This document shows, in pieces, positions 1,047-9,387 of a stretch of 64,000 nt of DNA (positions are counted from its first letter, which is position 1; the number at the start of each line of letters is the position of its first letter). Source of the DNA: Escherichia phage Ptacy1532; sequence record PQ863255.1. The stretch is one strand, 5' to 3'. The notes below the pieces were generated by a model. It was not told where the DNA came from, made no database searches, and worked only from the letters and a program-made list of their open reading frames with translations. The position numbers were made by a program, and so were the translations under genes.

Positions 1047-1070
1047 GCCTCCTTTGGGAGGCTTTTTGTG
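1047..1070 (+). terminator. rho-independent terminator
   Basis: GCCTCC-TTTG-GGAGGC perfect stem-loop followed by TTTTTGTGTTG. Confidence 0.5.
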
Positions 1071-1097
1071 TTGTTGATAATGTAGAAGGAGTATAAA

Positions 1098-1571
1098 ATG
1101 TTTGGAGAAAACGGAGAACTCACGCCTGCACAGGTAGCTGAGGTTACAGGAAGATTACCCGGAGTAACGGAAGAACTCGAAAGCCGTGGTATGAACCCAA
1201 GCAATGGGAAGTTTCAAAAGGGAAATAAATTCGGACGACCCAGAGGTAGTAGAGGTAAACTGACACAATTAATGTTGGACCGTGTTGCTGCAAGTCATTT
1301 GTCTCCTGATGAAGTGTTAATTCAAATTTACGAAGATCCTAATATTCCACCCGATCTTAGATTCAAGGCTGCATCAAAAGTTGCAGATCTGGTATATCCT
1401 AAGGCGGCCTCTGTTGAAGTTAAGATTGAGGAAGAGAATGTAATCAACGAAGAATCATTGAATGCACAAATCAAGGACTTCTTGACTGGAGCACTTGGTA
1501 TCGACGTTATGCCTCCAGAAGAAGACAACTCTGAGGACGCTGAAAAGGGGGATGAAGCGGACGAGAGTTAA
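1098..1571 (+). CDS. putative terminase small subunit
   Basis: 157-aa ORF with AAGGAG SD immediately upstream of large terminase; basic N-terminal region, acidic C-terminus; assignment by position only. Confidence 0.3.
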   Translation: MFGENGELTPAQVAEVTGRLPGVTEELESRGMNPSNGKFQKGNKFGRPRGSRGKLTQLMLDRVAASHLSPDEVLIQIYEDPNIPPDLRFKAASKVADLVYPKAASVEVKIEEENVINEESLNAQIKDFLTGALGIDVMPPEEDNSEDAEKGDEADES

Positions 1572-1732
1572 TTAAAGGAAACAGGGAGCTGTCGAAGATC
1601 ATCTGATTAGCAATCTGAGGATTGTTATATTTTTATTGCCACGATGTTCTTTTGCAGTGTACCCTTGTAGTGGAGAGGGGAGGTTCTTTGACGAAGGGAC
1701 TTTCCCTTTTCTATTTTTAAACTGGAGGAAGT

Positions 1733-3274
1733 ATGTCATTAGATAAACAAATTTATGAAGCTCTAACTGGTAACAACCTTAGTGTAAATGAAAAGAAAGC
1801 ACTATTGAATATGTTGAAAGAGCGTGACCAATGGAGGAAGTATAATAGGATTTTGTCTTTCAAGGCGTATGACTTCCAAAAGAAATTTTATGCAGCAGGA
1901 TTGAAGCATCGCTTTAGATTCTTGTGTGCAGCGAACCGTGTTGGTAAATCTTACAGCGAGGCATACGAGTTTGCTTGTCATGTCACAGGTCGCTACCCAA
2001 CTTGGTGGACAGGATATAAATTTAAAAGACCTATCTTAGCATGGGCAGTTGGTATTACAGGGGATTCCACAAGGAAAGTATTGCAAAAGGAGTTGTTTGG
2101 TACACCTATCGGAAAGGATACAAACTTATTGGGGACAGGTGTCATTCCTCGTGATGCTATCGTCATTGACACGATAGAACGAGATGGTAACAAACTTCAA
2201 ATCGTACAAATCAAACATCAAAACGAAAGAGGAGAGTTTGACGGTTTAAGTACAGTAGAATTCCGTTCAACCCAACAGGGTGAACACACATTGATGGGTG
2301 CGACAGTTGACTACATTTGGTTAGACGAAGAAGATCCATACGAGTCTATGGCTATATTCGCACAGTGCGTCACACGTACACTCACAACTAAAGGTCTAGT
2401 TACAATTACAGCTACACCAGAGAACGGTTTAACGGAACTGGTAGATAAATTTATGAAAGGTGAAGGGGATGAGAACACAGGTTCTCTATATTTCCAGAAT
2501 GCTTCTTGGTGGGATGCTCATGTAGACCTAGGTGGACATATCACTGACCAAGATATAAAAGATATGACTGAAGGTATTCCAGCGTGGCAGTTAGAGATGC
2601 GTTCGAAAGGTATGCCATTGTTAGGAAGTGGTTTGATATATGATGTATCGGATGACACAATTAAATGTGAACCGTTTGAAATTCCTGATACATGGAAACG
2701 TGTCTGTGCAATTGATATTGGTATTGATCACCCAACTGCTGCTGTTTGGACAGCTTACGATGCAAACACGGATACTATCTATGTTTACGACTCGTATAAA
2801 GAAGGTGGCTTTACTCCAGTGTATCATGCTCCAGCTATTAATGGTCGTGGTCAGTGGATTCCTGTCATCCTACCGCATGATGCGGACAATATTGAGAAAG
2901 GTAGTGGATCTTCTGTTGCTCAATTCTATAAGAATGCAGGAGTTAACGTACAGAGTGAGACCTTCTACAACAAAATTGGAATGGATGGTAAAAAGAACTT
3001 CTTTGTAGAACCGGGAATCACAGATATCCGAGAAAGAATGATGAGTGGACGCTTTAAAATCTTTAACACAGCCGCTAACGCTAAGCTATTCGAAGAGAAA
3101 GCTAGATATCACCGTAAGGTTGGTAAGATTATTAAAGAACATGATGACTTAATGGATGCAATGCGCTATTCAGCGTGCTCTGTTACACATCGTGGTCGCT
3201 CTAAACATGATGTTAGCTACGGAAGTGCTTCTCTGTATGAGGCAAACGTAAGCAGATGGAATCAGAGCTACTAA
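1733..3274 (+). CDS. terL: terminase large subunit
   Basis: 513 aa; Walker A-like AANRVGKS, Walker B-like DYIWLDEED, C-terminal nuclease-like region; GGAGG SD. Confidence 0.8.
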   Translation: MSLDKQIYEALTGNNLSVNEKKALLNMLKERDQWRKYNRILSFKAYDFQKKFYAAGLKHRFRFLCAANRVGKSYSEAYEFACHVTGRYPTWWTGYKFKRPILAWAVGITGDSTRKVLQKELFGTPIGKDTNLLGTGVIPRDAIVIDTIERDGNKLQIVQIKHQNERGEFDGLSTVEFRSTQQGEHTLMGATVDYIWLDEEDPYESMAIFAQCVTRTLTTKGLVTITATPENGLTELVDKFMKGEGDENTGSLYFQNASWWDAHVDLGGHITDQDIKDMTEGIPAWQLEMRSKGMPLLGSGLIYDVSDDTIKCEPFEIPDTWKRVCAIDIGIDHPTAAVWTAYDANTDTIYVYDSYKEGGFTPVYHAPAINGRGQWIPVILPHDADNIEKGSGSSVAQFYKNAGVNVQSETFYNKIGMDGKKNFFVEPGITDIRERMMSGRFKIFNTAANAKLFEEKARYHRKVGKIIKEHDDLMDAMRYSACSVTHRGRSKHDVSYGSASLYEANVSRWNQSY

Positions 3275-3279
3275 AGTAA

Positions 3280-3310
3280 GGGGGAGGTTTGTCCTCCCTT
3301 CTTTTATTTA
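3280..3310 (+). terminator. putative terminator hairpin
   Basis: GGGAGG-TTTGT-CCTCCC stem-loop followed by TTCTTTTATTT. Confidence 0.4.
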
Positions 3311-3335
3311 AGCTATCAACCGAGGGAGAGAATAG

Positions 3336-5579
3336 ATGGCTAAGCAAAAATATAGTGAAGAGGTGTTGGACGAGTTACGTGTTGACCTTCAACGTCGTTT
3401 TAATTATGCTCAAGGCTACGTAGATATGGCTGTTAAGGGCTATGCTCGTGAAGCTTGGGAATATTTCTATGGTAACTTACCTGCACCAGTAACTGCTGGC
3501 AGCTCTAGTTGGGTAGATCGTACTGTTTGGGAATCTGTTAACGGTACATTGCAAGATATTATTAACGTATTCTGTTCTGGTGATGAAGCAGTTACTTTCG
3601 TAGCTGACAACCAACAGGATTCTGATGCTGCTGATGTAGCAACTAAATTAGTTAACCAAATTCTTCTGCGTGACAATCCGGGATACAACATTATCTCTTC
3701 TGCTGCACAAGAATGTCTGGTTACTCGCAACTCTTTTATCAAATATTATTGGGATGAGCAAACTTCTACTCAAACTGAGGAAGCTGAAGGTGTACCACCG
3801 GAAGCATTGGCTGCATATGTTCAGGGGTTAGAAGCTGGTGGACTCAAGAATCTGGAAATCTTCACTGAAGAAAATGAAGATGGTACAGTAGATGTTAAGG
3901 TTACTTATGAGCAAACTGTCAAACGTGTGAAAGTTGAATATGTTCCTTCAGAGCAAATCTTTGTTGATGAACATGCTACCTCTTTTGCAGATGCACAATA
4001 CTTCTGTCATCGTGTACGTCGTTCTAAAGAAGATCTGGTTGCTATGGGCTTCCCTAAAGATGAGATTGAAGCATTCAACGACTGGACAGACACGATGGAT
4101 ACTACTCAATCTACAGTTGCTTGGTCTCGTACTGACTGGCGTCAGGATATTGATGCTGATATTGGTACAGATACCGAAGATATCGCTTCTATGGTTTGGG
4201 TTTATGAGCACTACATCCGTACTGGTGTTCTAGATAAAAATAAAGAGTCTAAACTCTATCAGGTTATTCAAGCTGGTGAGCATATCCTTCACACTGAAGA
4301 AGTAACTCACATTCCGTTTGTAACCTTCTGCCCGTATCCGATTCCGGGTTCCTTCTATGGTCAATCGGTCTATGACATTACGAAAGATATTCAAGATTTA
4401 CGTACCGCGTTAGTTCGTGGTTATATTGATAACGTCAACAATGCTAACTATGGTCGATACAAAGCTCTTGTTGGTGCATACGATCGTCGCTCTCTGCTTG
4501 ATAACCGTCCCGGTGGAGTGGTTGAAATGGAACGTCAGGACGCTATTGACCTGTTTCCATACCATAACCTACCTCAAGGTATTGACGGCCTCCTAGGTAT
4601 GTCTGAGGAGCTTAAAGAGACACGTACAGGTGTAACTAAACTTGGCATGGGTATCAACCCTGATGTGTTTAAGAATGATAACGCTTATGCAACCGTAGGT
4701 TTGATGATGAATGCTGCACAGAACCGTCTCCGTATGGTATGTCGTAACATTGCTCATAATGGTATGGTTGAATTGATGCGTGGTATTTACAATCTTATCA
4801 GAGAAAATGGTGAAGTTCCTATCGAGGTACAAACCCCTCGTGGTATGATTCAGGTAAATCCAAAACAATTACCAGCTCGTCACAACCTCCAAGTTGTTGT
4901 AGCTATCTCTCCTAATGAGAAAGCAGAACGTGCACAGAAACTGATTAGCTTGAAACAGCTGATTGCAGCAGATGCACAGTTAGCACCTCTCTTTGGTTTG
5001 GAGCAAGACCGTTACATGACTGCACAGATCTTTGAGTTGATGGGTATTAAGGACACACATAAATACCTTCTGCCTCTGGAACAGTATCAGCCTCCAGAAC
5101 CTTCTCCGATGGAAATCCTCCAGCTTGAGATGACTAAAGCACAGGTTGAGAACGTACAGGCTTCTTCTCAGAAGATGATTGCTGATGCATTCGACCAACG
5201 TGAACGTACTACATTCGAACAGCAGAAAGCTGCGGATGAATTAAGTCTGCGTCAGGAAGAGTTGCAGTTCAAGCAAGAAAATGCAGCAGATGCTATGACT
5301 CTGGAAAACCGTAAAGAAGATAACAATGCTACTCTGGAACAAGCTAAACACAAATTAGCTCTTATGCAACAGCAGGTCCGTCAGTATGAATCTGTACTGA
5401 AAGAATTGCAGATGGTTATGTCTCATCAGGTAGACCAAGAGAAGATTGTTCAGCAATCTCGTGTTCAGGATAAAACTTTGGAACTCCAAAAGAAAGAAGC
5501 TAATGTACCTAAGAAAGAGCAACAAGCTACTCTCAAAGATTCACGGATTCCAGGCAAACGTCTTGGAAGTAAAAACTAA
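3336..5579 (+). CDS. portal protein (putative)
   Basis: 747-aa ORF directly downstream of terminase and upstream of scaffold and capsid; C-terminal coiled-coil; assignment by synteny and size. Confidence 0.6.
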   Translation: MAKQKYSEEVLDELRVDLQRRFNYAQGYVDMAVKGYAREAWEYFYGNLPAPVTAGSSSWVDRTVWESVNGTLQDIINVFCSGDEAVTFVADNQQDSDAADVATKLVNQILLRDNPGYNIISSAAQECLVTRNSFIKYYWDEQTSTQTEEAEGVPPEALAAYVQGLEAGGLKNLEIFTEENEDGTVDVKVTYEQTVKRVKVEYVPSEQIFVDEHATSFADAQYFCHRVRRSKEDLVAMGFPKDEIEAFNDWTDTMDTTQSTVAWSRTDWRQDIDADIGTDTEDIASMVWVYEHYIRTGVLDKNKESKLYQVIQAGEHILHTEEVTHIPFVTFCPYPIPGSFYGQSVYDITKDIQDLRTALVRGYIDNVNNANYGRYKALVGAYDRRSLLDNRPGGVVEMERQDAIDLFPYHNLPQGIDGLLGMSEELKETRTGVTKLGMGINPDVFKNDNAYATVGLMMNAAQNRLRMVCRNIAHNGMVELMRGIYNLIRENGEVPIEVQTPRGMIQVNPKQLPARHNLQVVVAISPNEKAERAQKLISLKQLIAADAQLAPLFGLEQDRYMTAQIFELMGIKDTHKYLLPLEQYQPPEPSPMEILQLEMTKAQVENVQASSQKMIADAFDQRERTTFEQQKAADELSLRQEELQFKQENAADAMTLENRKEDNNATLEQAKHKLALMQQQVRQYESVLKELQMVMSHQVDQEKIVQQSRVQDKTLELQKKEANVPKKEQQATLKDSRIPGKRLGSKN

Positions 5580-5588
5580 GGACGTCGA

Positions 5589-5825
5589 ATGAACATTAGA
5601 CATCAATTTAATAAAGAGCACGCCGCCGCTTTGGCGGCTCTCAACCTTAACGGCAGTCTTGACGCAGCATTAGAGGCATTGAAAGAAAGACTCATGACAG
5701 AGATAGTTCAAACAGAACCTCATGAGAATAAGAAACGCGAAGATTGTTATCAAAAGTATAAAATGGTTGGTAGCTTAAAAGAGGTCATAAAAGCTGCTAT
5801 CAATAGTGCAGGAGATGTTTCATAA
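5589..5825 (+). CDS. hypothetical protein (78 aa)
   Basis: ORF with AAGGA SD between portal and scaffold genes. Confidence 0.4.
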   Translation: MNIRHQFNKEHAAALAALNLNGSLDAALEALKERLMTEIVQTEPHENKKREDCYQKYKMVGSLKEVIKAAINSAGDVS

Positions 5826-6910: not shown

Positions 6911-6950
6911 TCGACAAATTAATTATTAATAGTATAGGAGCTAACATAAC

Positions 6951-8009
6951 ATGGCTAATCCAACTTTATTTGTATCGTATGACCAGAATGGTAAAAAACT
7001 TTCTTTTGCTAACTGGATTTCTGTTCTGTCCCCTCAGGATACCCCGTTCGTATCTATGACCGGTAAAGAGTCTATCAACCAGACCATCTTTAGCTGGCAG
7101 ACCGATGCATTGGCAAGCGTTGACGCTAATAACGCACACGTCGAAGGCTCTCGTGCTGAAGACGGCGAAATGAAACCGACTGTTATCAAATCTAACGTTA
7201 CTCAGATTCTGCGTAAGGTTGTTCGTGTTTCTGATACTGCTAACACCACCGCTAACTATGGTCGTGGTCGTGAACTGATGTATCAGCTGGAGAAGAAAGG
7301 TAAAGAGATCAAACGTGATCTCGAGAAGATCCTTCTGTCCGGTCAGGCTCGTACCGACGTTCTGGCTGACCAGTACCTGACTAACTCTGCAACTGATCCT
7401 GATGTTGTTGGTCTGAACGACACCCATGCAGCTCGTAAGACTGGTGCTTTCCAGTTCCTGTGTGCTCACGGCGGTCTGTCTGGTGGTTTTGTTGACAAGA
7501 CCAAAAATGGTCCTGCTGACCCGGATACTGGTGCAGTAACTGTTAAAGTTGCACAGAATGCTTCTAACCCGACCACTAACATCGGTTTCGACGAAGCTGA
7601 TATCTTTGATATGACTCTGCAACTGTACACCGCTGGTTCTGAAGCAGATATCATCATGATTAACCCAGCTCATGCTAAGATCTTCGCTGGTCTGCAAGAA
7701 AATACTCAGGGTTCACGTAAGCGTATCTTTGAGAACACCAAGCAGTTCATCTACGAAGTTAACAGCATCACTGACCCGCTGGGCCAGAGCTACAAAATCA
7801 TCGTTAACCGTTGGATGCCTACCGATGCAGTTTACTTCTTCCGTAGCGCTGACTGGACCCAGATGGTTCTGCGTGCTCCGAAACGTACTGAACTGGCTAA
7901 AGATGGTTCTTACGAGAAGTGGATGATTGAGATGGAAGTTGGTCTGCGTCACCGCAACCCGTACGCTTCCGGCGTTCTGTTCACTGCTGCGGGAAAGGTG
8001 GTGGCGTAA
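6951..8009 (+). CDS. major capsid protein
   Basis: 352 aa; AGGAG SD; position after scaffold; strong terminator downstream; immediately followed by Ig-like ORF in -1 frame. Confidence 0.7.
   Translation: MANPTLFVSYDQNGKKLSFANWISVLSPQDTPFVSMTGKESINQTIFSWQTDALASVDANNAHVEGSRAEDGEMKPTVIKSNVTQILRKVVRVSDTANTTANYGRGRELMYQLEKKGKEIKRDLEKILLSGQARTDVLADQYLTNSATDPDVVGLNDTHAARKTGAFQFLCAHGGLSGGFVDKTKNGPADPDTGAVTVKVAQNASNPTTNIGFDEADIFDMTLQLYTAGSEADIIMINPAHAKIFAGLQENTQGSRKRIFENTKQFIYEVNSITDPLGQSYKIIVNRWMPTDAVYFFRSADWTQMVLRAPKRTELAKDGSYEKWMIEMEVGLRHRNPYASGVLFTAAGKVVA
7991..7997 (+). other. candidate -1 ribosomal frameshift slippery heptamer G_GGA_AAG
   Basis: Heptamer is aligned X_XXY_YYZ in the capsid frame, 4 codons before the capsid stop; -1 frame is open from 7931 into the Ig-like ORF. 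Confidence 0.5.
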
Positions 8010-8533
8010 CAGTAGACAGTGTGACTGTTAGCCCTGCGTCTTTAGCAAGTCTAGAGACAGGGGCTACTCGGCAGTTCACTGCAAGCGCGGAGAAAAGTGA
8101 TGGTTCTACCGAAACAACTGGCTTTACTTGGTCAGTGACAGGAGGTGGTTCTATCACTCAGTCGGGTTTGTATACTGCTCCGAGTGCGTCTCAATCCACT
8201 GATGTATCCATTACTGCAACTTTAGAAGGTGTTTCTGGTACAGCAACCATTTCTGAAATTGTTGCTCCTGCTCCTACTATTGTAGCTAAGGGTCCAATTA
8301 CGGGTAAAACTGGTGGTTCCTCCACTAATTTCACTACCATGTTTACTGTAACTAATTCTGCTGCTGCGGATTACACGTTTGTTGTAACTCCTACAGAAGC
8401 TGGTACAGTGAGCGCCGCTGGTGCGTTAACCTTAGATGCTGCTGCAAGTGGCGAAGTTACTGTTAAAGCAAGTCTGACAGCTGACCCATCCATCAATGCA
8501 ACATGCACTTTTACTGGTGTAACACCTGCTTAA
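7997..8533 (+). CDS. Ig-like (Big_2-type) domain, probable C-terminal extension of major capsid protein via -1 frameshift
   Basis: ORF track 8021..8533 (GTG start, no SD); sequence VSPASLASLETGATRQFTA...WSVTGGG...GLYTA fits bacterial Ig-like group 2 pattern; no independent RBS. Confidence 0.5.
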   Translation, partial: GGGVTVDSVTVSPASLASLETGATRQFTASAEKSDGSTETTGFTWSVTGGGSITQSGLYTAPSASQSTDVSITATLEGVSGTATISEIVAPAPTIVAKGPITGKTGGSSTNFTTMFTVTNSAAADYTFVVTPTEAGTVSAAGALTLDAAASGEVTVKASLTADPSINATCTFTGVTPA

Positions 8534-8540
8534 AACTAGA

Positions 8541-8566
8541 CCCTGCCTTCGGGCGGGGTTTTTTCG
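8541..8566 (+). terminator. rho-independent terminator
   Basis: CCCTGCC-TTCG-GGCGGGG stem-loop followed by TTTTTTCGTTTT. Confidence 0.7.
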
Positions 8567-8592
8567 TTTTAAGACCTATACAAGCTAGTGTG

Positions 8593-8601
8593 TAATGTAT
8601 A
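8593..8601 (+). promoter_or_regulatory. TAATGTATA motif, candidate phage promoter element
   Basis: Exact 9-mer 33 nt upstream of ATG at 8635 and just after the capsid terminator; same 9-mer recurs at 4 other intergenic sites. Confidence 0.4.
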
Positions 8602-8634: not shown

Positions 8635-9387
8635 ATGGCAATGCCAGATGTTCAATACCCCATCAATACCTATGGGTGGCTAAAGAAGGCCGTGGCCCTC
8701 TGGGCAGATAGGGACGATGACGAATTTGTTAATCAAATTCCAAACTTTATTAACTTTGCAGAGAAAGAGATTTATCGTAACTTACGTATCCCTCCTCTGG
8801 AAAAAGAAGTATATCTCAGTATTAAAAATGGAGTGGCTTTTATCCCTCCGGATTATTTACAAGCTCAGTGGATGATGAGAGCTAAAGATGGAGCAATATT
8901 CCAAGTAACTTCTCCAGAAGAAATAAGCTATCGCAAACAACACGGTACAATTAATCCTTCTCATTGGAATAATCAACCTGTTAATTTTGCTCGTTTCGGA
9001 AGTCGTTTCCTTTTCTATCCACTGATTGATGCTGATATTCCCGTTTACCCGGATGATGGAAGTCCTGCTATTCCAGCAGAGAACTCTGTGATTCTTAGTT
9101 ATTATGCAGATCCTCCAGAGTTTCATGCAGATGAAGACACCAGTGCGATACTTACGATTGCTCCGGAACTTCTTCTATATTTTACCCTTAGGCATGCCTG
9201 TCTTTTTGTTCAGGATGATAACGGTGTTCAAAAATGGTCTGCATTAGGTAAGGCTATTCTTGATGAGATGGTTGAGCAAGATAAGAAACAGGAGTATTCA
9301 GGCTCTCCTATTGCGATACCTAATAATATGACCAGACTTCAGAGTAGCCTACCAGATATTTATGGGATACGTACCTCTAGAGTATAA
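8635..9387 (+). CDS. virion structural protein (putative)
   Basis: 250-aa ORF with AAGGAGG SD downstream of capsid gene; function unassigned. Confidence 0.45.
   Translation: MAMPDVQYPINTYGWLKKAVALWADRDDDEFVNQIPNFINFAEKEIYRNLRIPPLEKEVYLSIKNGVAFIPPDYLQAQWMMRAKDGAIFQVTSPEEISYRKQHGTINPSHWNNQPVNFARFGSRFLFYPLIDADIPVYPDDGSPAIPAENSVILSYYADPPEFHADEDTSAILTIAPELLLYFTLRHACLFVQDDNGVQKWSALGKAILDEMVEQDKKQEYSGSPIAIPNNMTRLQSSLPDIYGIRTSRV

Follow-up and report, generated by a model that had tools for sequence, protein, structure and literature searches.

A −1 ribosomal frameshift site predicted to append Ig-like domains to a minority of major capsid proteins in Escherichia phage Ptacy1532

Is the Ig-like open reading frame (ORF) that follows the major capsid gene of Escherichia phage Ptacy1532 a gene of its own, or is it the distal part of a longer capsid protein that ribosomes reach by changing frame? 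The locus lies in a 64,000-nucleotide stretch of DNA (record PQ863255.1), which is referred to here as the window. A first-pass annotation of this DNA had proposed a −1 frameshift that yields a minor fusion of the major capsid protein (MCP) with an Ig-like extension, and this proposal is supported both by comparative evidence and by published work on near-identical phages. Judged from its sequence, the locus of this phiEco32/SU10-type coliphage is very probably the −1 programmed ribosomal frameshift site of a Kuravirus major capsid gene, with a 527-amino-acid (aa) MCP–Ig fusion as the predicted minor product.

The MCP gene occupies positions 6951–8009 of the plus strand (0 frame) and, according to the ORF list, encodes a protein of 352 aa (38.8 kDa) that ends at a TAA stop codon at 8007–8009. 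The protein belongs to the Pfam family SU10_MCP (PF17236; E = 5.5e-77; 259.6 bits against a gathering cut-off of 24.1), which comprises the HK97-fold capsid proteins of Kuravirus-like phages. The gene is preceded by a Shine–Dalgarno (SD) sequence, AGGAG at 6936–6940, with a duplex energy of −6.5 kcal/mol, and it lies in a syntenic head module (portal, small ORF, scaffold, MCP, adaptor (PF24175), and tail fibre). The capsid transcription unit is closed by an intrinsic terminator at 8538–8571 (plus strand). The first-pass annotation had described a strong terminator after the Ig-like ORF, and it was recovered as a 10-bp stem with 6 GC pairs (8538–8561) and a 4-nt loop, followed by a T-run; a terminator is also annotated at the equivalent place in the records of relatives. 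A scan of the whole 64-kb window for Rfam families and tRNAs returned no matches.

Near the 3′ end of the capsid gene, the heptamer GGGAAAG is found at 7991–7997 (plus strand), in the capsid frame and with its AAG 4 codons before the stop, just as had been reported. The capsid codons at this point are GCG GGA AAG GTG GTG GCG TAA; therefore, the heptamer is phased as G_GGA_AAG, and this phasing lets both tRNAs, positioned on the 0-frame codons GGA and AAG, re-pair in the −1 frame. Heptamers of the form X_XXA_AAG occur in the 64-kb window at 0.00017 per codon position, and 0.0045 such sites would be expected by chance within the 26-codon overlap, where one was found. Furthermore, we searched both strands of the window for canonical in-frame heptamers close to the end of an open frame (150 codons or more) from which a −1 extension of 40 codons or more could be reached, and the site at 7991 was the only one. 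In E. coli, ribosomes are highly prone to shift on G_GGA_AAG (PMC5009743; PMC4066793).

What would a ribosome encounter after slipping at this site? The −1 frame is indeed open across the heptamer, from 7931 (the upstream stop is a TGA at 7928) to the stop at 8531–8533. It reaches 174 codons beyond the MCP stop and is in phase with the 170-aa ORF at 8021–8533; the +1 frame closes after 7 codons. Translated from the slip onward, the extension (7997–8533, plus strand, with TAA at 8531–8533) comprises 178 aa and begins with three Gly codons (7997–8005, plus strand) that lie upstream of the annotated GTG start. Together with MCP residues 1–349, it would form a protein of 527 aa and 55.7 kDa, close to the earlier estimate of about 525 aa. 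Translation also reproduces the junction peptide that had been written for the fusion, in which ...FTAAGK is followed by GGGVTVDSVTVSPAS... Trypsin cleaves at the junction Lys, and the tryptic peptide GGGVTVDSVTVSPASLASLETGATR is encoded partly upstream of the GTG at 8021.

The two products would arise in the following way. Translation by most ribosomes would run through GGA-AAG-GUG-GUG-GCG-UAA and yield the HK97-fold capsid protein of 352 aa. On the other hand, a minority of ribosomes would slip back by one base on G_GGA_AAG, so that tRNA-Gly in the P site exchanges GGA for GGG and tRNA-Lys in the A site exchanges AAG for AAA. The slipped ribosomes would pass the stop codon and append the Gly3 linker and, behind it, two Big_2-type Ig-like domains in tandem, and the resulting 527-aa minor subunit would co-assemble into the capsid via its normal MCP body.

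Is the shifted frame maintained in related phages? The locus is 99.5% identical in nucleotide sequence to that of vB_EcoP_WFI101126 and 97.5% identical to that of phiEco32 (97–99.5% over positions 6951–8600). Absence of the heptamer from relatives with a preserved Ig-like ORF had been named beforehand as evidence against the frameshift; what we found was the heptamer in 15 of 15 Kuravirus/Suseptimavirus sequences, unchanged among variable adjacent synonymous sites and with no variation in its Gly and Lys codons. Privateer and CsaP_009 also have it, although their MCPs are just 57% identical and their extensions are non-homologous. In relatives, the linker reads GGG, GGS, or GSGG, with a single indel of 3 nt. 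Between 7998 and 8020, five of the seven variable sites are third positions in the −1 frame and second positions in the 0 frame, and the counts for the three −1-frame codon positions in the linker upstream of the GTG are 1, 1, and 5. The corresponding counts for the extension are 58, 50, and 119, and its indels are multiples of three. As read from this comparison of sequences, the shifted frame is under purifying selection, beginning at the slip site.

The assignment of the extension to the Ig-like, Big_2-type domains was also supported by profile matches. The whole extension matched Pfam Big_2 (PF02368) with 26.2 bits, above the gathering cut-off of 22.8, its best stretch being residues 105–158, and each half matched separately. 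The first domain lies at 8012–8245 (plus strand; extension residues about 6–83) and gave E = 8e-4 with this half alone, over profile positions 2–75 of 79; the second lies at 8276–8530 (plus strand; residues about 94–178) and gave E = 1.7e-3 with that half alone. A BLASTP comparison of one half of the extension with the other detected no significant internal repeat (E = 0.84), the two domains having diverged beyond the reach of pairwise comparison. A sequence search of the PDB with the extension returned weak matches only, the top one being 'bacterial immunoglobulin domain B1' (E = 0.087). An AlphaFold2 model of the 178-aa extension, made from the single sequence without an alignment, had a pLDDT of 48.9 and was unusable for checking the Ig fold. 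The domains are probably displayed outward from the capsid in an accessory adhesion role.

Could the Ig-like ORF be a separate gene, translated from the GTG at 8021–8023 (plus strand) by de novo initiation or termination–reinitiation into a free 17-kDa decoration protein of 170 aa? This GTG is the annotated start of an 'Ig domain protein' gene in most database records, and the ORF stands as a separate gene in those of phiEco32, WFI101126, SU7, MN05, and LAMP. The authors of the SU10 cryo-EM study, too, considered that gp10 might be a minor capsid protein in its own right. Since the MCP stop is just 12 nt upstream of the GTG, translational coupling of such a gene is conceivable. However, the GTG has no SD sequence; the first-pass annotation had said that the ORF lacked a ribosome-binding site, and the anti-SD energy at 8021 is at background level (−1.5 kcal/mol, against a window mean of −1.8). 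The corresponding energies of six neighbouring genes range from −6.0 to −11.4 kcal/mol. Furthermore, five relatives have retained the ORF but not the GTG, which is replaced by ATA in NJ01 and by GTA in Paul, L006, KBNP1711, and EK010, and in these the first possible start lies 34–47 residues into the first Ig domain, again without an SD sequence. From the slip site to the GTG, the codons also evolve like −1-frame coding sequence. In Privateer, just 7 nt separate the opening of the −1 ORF from the stop, and no start codon occurs in this ORF before residue 61. A separate gene is thus very unlikely; judging by its sequence context, the GTG at 8021 probably encodes an internal Val and does not serve for initiation.

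It might also be argued that the extension is a decaying, barely expressed remnant, as in SU10, and that the heptamer is kept solely for the C-terminal Ala-Gly-Lys that it encodes. SU10 is viable without the extension, which is therefore dispensable in the laboratory, and the extension is under weaker constraint than the MCP, where the variable sites per codon position number 31, 15, and 142. Against decay stand the third-position excess and the multiples-of-three indels described above, together with a −1 ORF that is intact in 14 of the 15 sampled relatives and whose frame is kept even though the extension varies in length (178 to 545 aa) and in domain content. A non-slippery form (GCG GGC AAG) could also encode Ala-Gly-Lys, but the codons for Gly and Lys are invariant. 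We consider a decaying remnant highly improbable. Might the long form instead result from slippage of RNA polymerase, or from some other recoding, and not from slippage of the ribosome? The product would be of equal size, and sequence alone cannot separate a shift at the RNA level from one at the ribosome. However, the homopolymer runs here are just 3 nt (GGG, AAA), and productive transcriptional slippage requires much longer ones; the heptamer, on the other hand, is phased exactly for tandem tRNA slippage and is an established ribosomal site in lambda G/GT. The chance that the shift is transcriptional is exceedingly small, and −1 slippage of the ribosome is the reading that we follow.

What might stimulate ribosomal frameshifting at this site? 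As candidate stimulators, we considered a downstream structure about 5–9 nt away or an upstream SD-like sequence. No SD-like element was seen on inspection of the sequence upstream of the slip site. On the downstream side, a conserved 7-bp hairpin at 8007–8030 (plus strand), with the arms UAACAGU (8007–8013) and ACUGUUA (8024–8030), is a candidate. The MCP stop codon forms the start of its 5′ arm, which lies 9 nt past the slip site (12 nt in NJ01 and Paul), a spacing of 9 nt being slightly long for a stimulatory hairpin. None of the 4 third positions in the arms is variable, compared with 14 of the 17 located beyond the arms (Fisher p = 0.006, post hoc), and 8014T accompanies 8023A in three sequences, which lengthens the stem. 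The folding z-score is about −2 only, and there are no strict compensatory pairs among the compared sequences. The hairpin is probably a modest frameshift stimulator. A longer fold at 7998–8090 (z = −2.1) was rejected, as its main stem is ~20 nt from the slip site and the conserved hairpin is nearer. A stem-loop that includes the slip site itself was proposed by Mirzaei et al. (PMC4281155). We set it aside because such a structure must melt before the ribosome arrives there; in addition, its 3′ arm in the present sequence, GGTGGTGG, would pair mostly through G-U.

How does the site compare with known systems? The capsid frameshift of Kuravirus has already been published, and the case presented here is a rediscovery, correct and ordinary. 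Frameshifting at the identical heptamer was described for SU10 'as in phiEco32' (PMC4281155), and it was also described for YF01 and its group (PMC9965538) and, as quoted in the RefSeq note of phage Paul, for phiEco32 (PMID 18294652). The RefSeq records of Paul and Privateer annotate a joined CDS, the note for Paul reading 'Frameshift at GGGAAAG'. In phiEco32, SU10, Paul, and YF01, the gene, the position of GGGAAAG, the Gly-rich linker, and the Big_2 extension are the same as here, and the mechanism would be no different. The extension of 178 aa is typical of phiEco32, whereas that of Paul and YF01 is about 540 aa and that of SU10 has been lost. In Privateer, the long form was documented by two SDS-PAGE bands and virion mass spectrometry (PMC7881722). 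That phage resembles the present one in its SU10_MCP-family capsid protein (57% identity), its G_GGA_AAG, its Ig-like extension, and the terminator that follows, but its heptamer abuts the stop (AAG UAA), its hairpin begins 6 nt downstream, and its extension consists of an I-set plus a Big_2 domain that are non-homologous to the extension studied here.

More distant parallels are found outside this group. Gene 10A/10B of T7 and gene 10 of T3 also use a −1 programmed frameshift near the 3′ end of a podovirus capsid gene to produce a longer minor subunit, but their MCP sequence family is unrelated and their slip sites differ from the one described here. The T3 extension is Ig-like and that of T7 is not (PMC5009743); the T7 capsid frameshift occurs at a rate of about 10% (PMC9965538). 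The lambda G/GT site shares the identical G_GGA_AAG, the host translation apparatus, and the Gly-Lys re-pairing, and it shifts at about 4%, with sensitivity to the U34 modification of tRNA-Lys (PMC3296357). The lambda product, however, is a tail chaperone that is absent from the virion, and the product here is a capsid subunit. Fraser et al. (2006), as summarised in PMC5009743, described Ig-like domains appended to phage structural proteins, and a C-terminal Ig-like domain added through a frameshift, as here, is a standard example of that pattern. In Salmonella phage 7-11, a second MCP paralogue carries such a domain in-frame.

How many of the long subunits might a virion carry? That the long form is made and present in virions is taken from the work on near-identical relatives. 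By analogy with lambda (about 4% on the identical heptamer) and T7 (about 10%), a few percent of ribosomes probably shift frame. An SU10-type head contains 715 MCP copies, of which roughly 30–70 would then be extended.

SU10 has lost the extension through a 1-nt insertion, in the region 8400–8450 of record KM044272. This loss apparently accompanied the conversion of the hairpin into a perfect palindrome, and a templated 'perfecting' of the palindrome may have added the one base that abolished the extension. The cryo-EM of SU10 revealed no extra capsid density, which is attributable to this phage's own insertion; the same insertion may explain the undecorated look of the only solved Kuravirus capsid. 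In the mass-spectrometry table of SU10, fusion-specific peptides are not clear, the long form being represented by 22 peptides (50% coverage) and the short form by 23 peptides (78% coverage) (PMC4281155). In related clades, we observed either a non-canonical G_GUA_AAG followed after 6 nt by a hairpin, as in Aeromonas phage LAh_6, or MCP paralogues that carry their extensions in-frame.

For biology, the locus adds little to published work, and the practical value of the finding lies in annotation. In most records of the group, the Ig-like ORF still appears as a gene of its own with an unsupported GTG start, and this applies to the type phage, phiEco32, as well as to the closest relative, WFI101126; the joined CDS is carried by the records of Paul and Privateer only. 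With about 715 subunits in the prolate capsid, the extension also offers a natural site for display; it is dispensable, judging by SU10, and it may interest engineers of such phages for therapy. Could the hairpin have a wider role in the family? Tentatively, and with the balance tilting against it, we suggest that stimulation by the conserved hairpin determines the proportion of capsid subunits that carry Ig domains and that its palindrome is a mutational hotspot, perfected in SU10, while sister lineages rely on G_GUA_AAG or on duplication of the capsid gene. If this were true, the family would offer a natural comparison of different ways of dosing capsid decoration.

The region 6951–8600 was 99.5% identical to vB_EcoP_WFI101126, 97.5% to phiEco32 and 97.0% to SU10 in a nucleotide search, and 122 phage records, Escherichia Kuraviruses in the majority, matched it. 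The major capsid protein (MCP) ORF (6951..8009, + strand; Pfam SU10_MCP, E = 5.5e-77) lies 3' of the portal, a small ORF and the scaffold; the next gene after the MCP and Ig-like ORFs is an SU10-type adaptor (8635..9387, assigned by Pfam), and a 1094-aa tail fibre gene lies further 3'. The first-pass annotation had proposed that a −1 frameshift fuses an Ig-like domain to the MCP, and each feature it cited was recovered. GGGAAAG occupies 7991–7997 within the MCP codons GCG GGA AAG GTG GTG GCG TAA, which sets its phase as G_GGA_AAG, 4 codons before the stop; the −1 frame stays open over 7931–8533, in phase with the 170-aa ORF that starts at GTG 8021; a terminator with a stem of 10 bp followed by a T-run lies at 8538–8571; and the extension scores 26.2 bits with Pfam Big_2 (gathering score 22.8). 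Since each half of the extension separately matches Big_2, it probably consists of two tandem Ig-like domains. The predicted products are 352 aa (38.8 kDa) and 527 aa (55.7 kDa), the latter with the junction ...FTAAGK-GGGVTVDSVTVSPAS.... We also observed that the extension (7997–8530) is strongly acidic: its predicted pI is 4.08, compared with 6.55 for the MCP body.

Could the Ig-like ORF instead be a gene of its own, starting at the GTG, as most database records have it? A separate 170-aa 'Ig domain containing protein' is annotated from this codon in phiEco32, WFI101126, SU7, MN05 and LAMP, and only the Paul and Privateer records carry a joined frameshift CDS, the two being similar. However, GTG 8021 lacks a Shine-Dalgarno (SD) sequence, just as the first reading had it: the anti-SD duplex there reaches −1.5 kcal/mol, where the window background averages −1.8, and six neighbouring genes reach −6.0 to −11.4 kcal/mol. 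Furthermore, the GTG is replaced by ATA in NJ01 and by GTA in Paul, KBNP1711, EK010 and the comparison sequence L006, yet the ORF is kept in all five, and the first in-frame start in NJ01, Paul, L006 and KBNP1711 lies 34–47 residues inside the first Ig domain, again without an SD sequence. The 24 nt from the slip site to the GTG also evolve like −1 frame coding sequence: five of their seven variable sites are third positions of that frame (second positions of the MCP frame), the sole indel is 3 nt, and the encoded peptide is a Gly/Ser linker throughout (GGG, GGS, GSGG). Across the whole extension, the variable sites per −1 codon position number 58, 50 and 119, which likewise argues against a separate gene; the corresponding MCP counts, by MCP codon position, are 31, 15 and 142. 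The separate-gene annotation of 8021–8533, and of the matching CDSs, is a propagated error. In the ShigP1 record, the extension is labelled as a second 'major head protein'.

X_XXA_AAG occurs in the window at a frequency of 0.00017 per codon position, so that 0.0045 are expected in the 26-codon overlap. In a scan of both strands of the 64-kb window, a canonical heptamer had to be in frame, to lie no more than 100 codons from the end of an open frame with a minimum length of 150 codons, and to lead into a −1 extension of 40 codons or more; only site 7991 qualified. The three other copies of GGGAAAG lie in short open frames without an extension. None of the 15 Kuravirus/Suseptimavirus sequences compared departs from G_GGA_AAG, whereas nearby synonymous sites vary in them. 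Proteus phage Privateer and Cronobacter phage CsaP_009 have it as well, although MCP identity is only 57% in their case and their extensions (I-set + Big_2) are unrelated to that of Ptacy1532. Because the heptamer is retained in all of these sequences, its loss from relatives that keep the Ig-like ORF, which would have spoken against the proposal, was not seen. Taken together, the original observation is confirmed and −1 frameshifting is very probably its correct interpretation.

The Kuravirus capsid frameshift is already known, as it has been published for SU10, Privateer and the YF01 group and is annotated in Paul. Mirzaei et al. (2014) described a fusion of head protein and Ig-like CDS10 through GGGAAAG in SU10 CDS9, 'as in phage phiEco32' (PMC4281155). 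Corban et al. (2021) found this signal in Privateer too, where the capsid protein gave two bands and mass spectrometry identified the minor form in virions, and reported that both forms had been seen in phiEco32 and SU10 (PMC7881722). A 2023 paper described the frameshift in 'YF01 and other group phages', with extension sizes of 500–550 aa and up to 892 aa (PMC9965538), and the note on the joined CDS in Paul's RefSeq entry reads 'Frameshift at GGGAAAG; Frameshift in PhiEco32 major capsid protein product as well (PMID: 18294652)'. Phage structural proteins that gain Ig-like domains through frameshifting form a recognised pattern (PMC5009743). Many phages of YF01's group encode a single tRNA (PMC9965538); no tRNA gene (ARAGORN) and no Rfam match at gathering thresholds were found in the whole 64-kb window, and the tRNA may lie outside it or be absent.

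G_GGA_AAG is highly shift-prone in E. coli according to the review by Atkins et al. (PMC5009743) and was among the more efficient heptamers in the systematic study by Sharma et al. (PMC4066793). At the same heptamer in lambda G/GT, ~4% of ribosomes shift, at a rate that depends on tRNA-Lys U34 modification (PMC3296357), and by analogy an efficiency of the same order, a few percent, would be expected in Ptacy1532. With 715 MCP copies in SU10-type heads (PMC9509320), such shifting would place some tens of Ig-bearing subunits on each virion.

A 7-bp hairpin (UAACAGU 8007–8013/ACUGUUA 8024–8030), whose 5' arm starts with the MCP stop codon, is possible in all Kuravirus sequences, 9 nt 3' of the slip site (12 nt in NJ01 and Paul). 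Third positions varied at 0 of 4 sites in the arms and 14 of 17 outside (Fisher p = 0.006), and all positions at 1 of 14 and 25 of 49, respectively (p = 0.004), both tests being post hoc and on related sequences; the stop codon also fixes one of the four third positions. In three sequences, 8014T and 8023A occur together and lengthen the stem. As further caveats, the arms each encode Val-Thr-Val, and the folding z-score is just ~−2. For these reasons, a role of the hairpin as a frameshift stimulator is only plausible. There is no SD-like element 5' of the slip site.

At the corresponding positions of SU10 (KM044272, 1554–1582; window 8004–8031), a G>C change, a 1-nt insertion and a G>T change distinguish it from all other sequences; with them, the hairpin, elsewhere imperfect, becomes a perfect inverted repeat of 11 bp, TAACAGTAGAC/GTCTACTGTTA (−15.9 compared with −9.3 kcal/mol). 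Judged by sequence, these changes are the signature of a quasipalindrome template-switch mutation. The insertion shifts the Ig-like ORF to the MCP frame, where two stops precede it, and because the −1 frame, whose premature stop was pointed out in the YF01 paper (PMC9965538), ends after 11 residues, the ORF is beyond the reach of a frameshift. This explains why the SU10 capsid appeared undecorated in cryo-EM (PMC9509320). In the SU10 proteomics (Table 2 of PMC4281155), the 9+10 form had 22 peptides covering 50.3% of 55.4 kDa and CDS9 had 23 covering 78.1%. Peptides from the MCP region common to both would by themselves yield roughly these values, so the fusion in SU10 is not demonstrated by the table.

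Within the genus, the extension is mostly 178–180 aa long, but it reaches 545 aa in Paul (4047–5684), where Pfam finds just the first Big_2 domain, and has 303 aa or more in EK010 (from ~1947). Its first ~25 residues are conserved despite this variation, which suggests that domains are gained and lost modularly 3' of a fixed junction. In the LAMP record (MG673519, ~1941–1965), the Gly linker GGTGGTGGCGTA is swapped for GTTGGATCCGCA, which contains a BamHI site (GGATCC); since the swap deletes the TAA, the MCP stops two codons later at TAG, and the −1 frame is still open, with the linker VGSA.

The Lahexavirus-like clade, comprising Aeromonas phage LAh_6 (3912–4190) and four uncultivated relatives (L009–L012, 4412–4930), lacks the canonical heptamer but has a conserved G_GUA_AAG, followed by an open −1 ORF of 90–171 aa with Ig-like domains (I-set/Ig_3 or two Big_2) and no usable start codon; in the LAh_6 record, this ORF is labelled 'putative tail protein'. 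A hairpin begins exactly 6 nt 3' of the slip site. As these features fit an A_AAG tetramer site that needs a stimulator (PMC4066793), an unannotated programmed frameshift on this tetramer is likely in the clade.

Two to four tandem MCP paralogues were found in Salmonella phage 7-11 (1982–4758), APT65 (1069–5263), ECO319P1 (2992–5096) and two uncultivated contigs (L013 and L014). One L014 paralogue (IMGVR_UViG_3300033688_000038, 4421–4555) has A_AAA_AAG three codons before its stop, beyond which the −1 frame runs for just 40 codons and encodes a peptide rich in Pro, Lys and Val, which could be a short frameshift tail or simply chance. In each multi-MCP relative, one paralogue is extended in-frame at its C-terminus, with Big_2 in 7-11 and ECO319P1. 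From these paralogues, gene duplication looks like an alternative to frameshifting for supplying a minor, extended capsid subunit.
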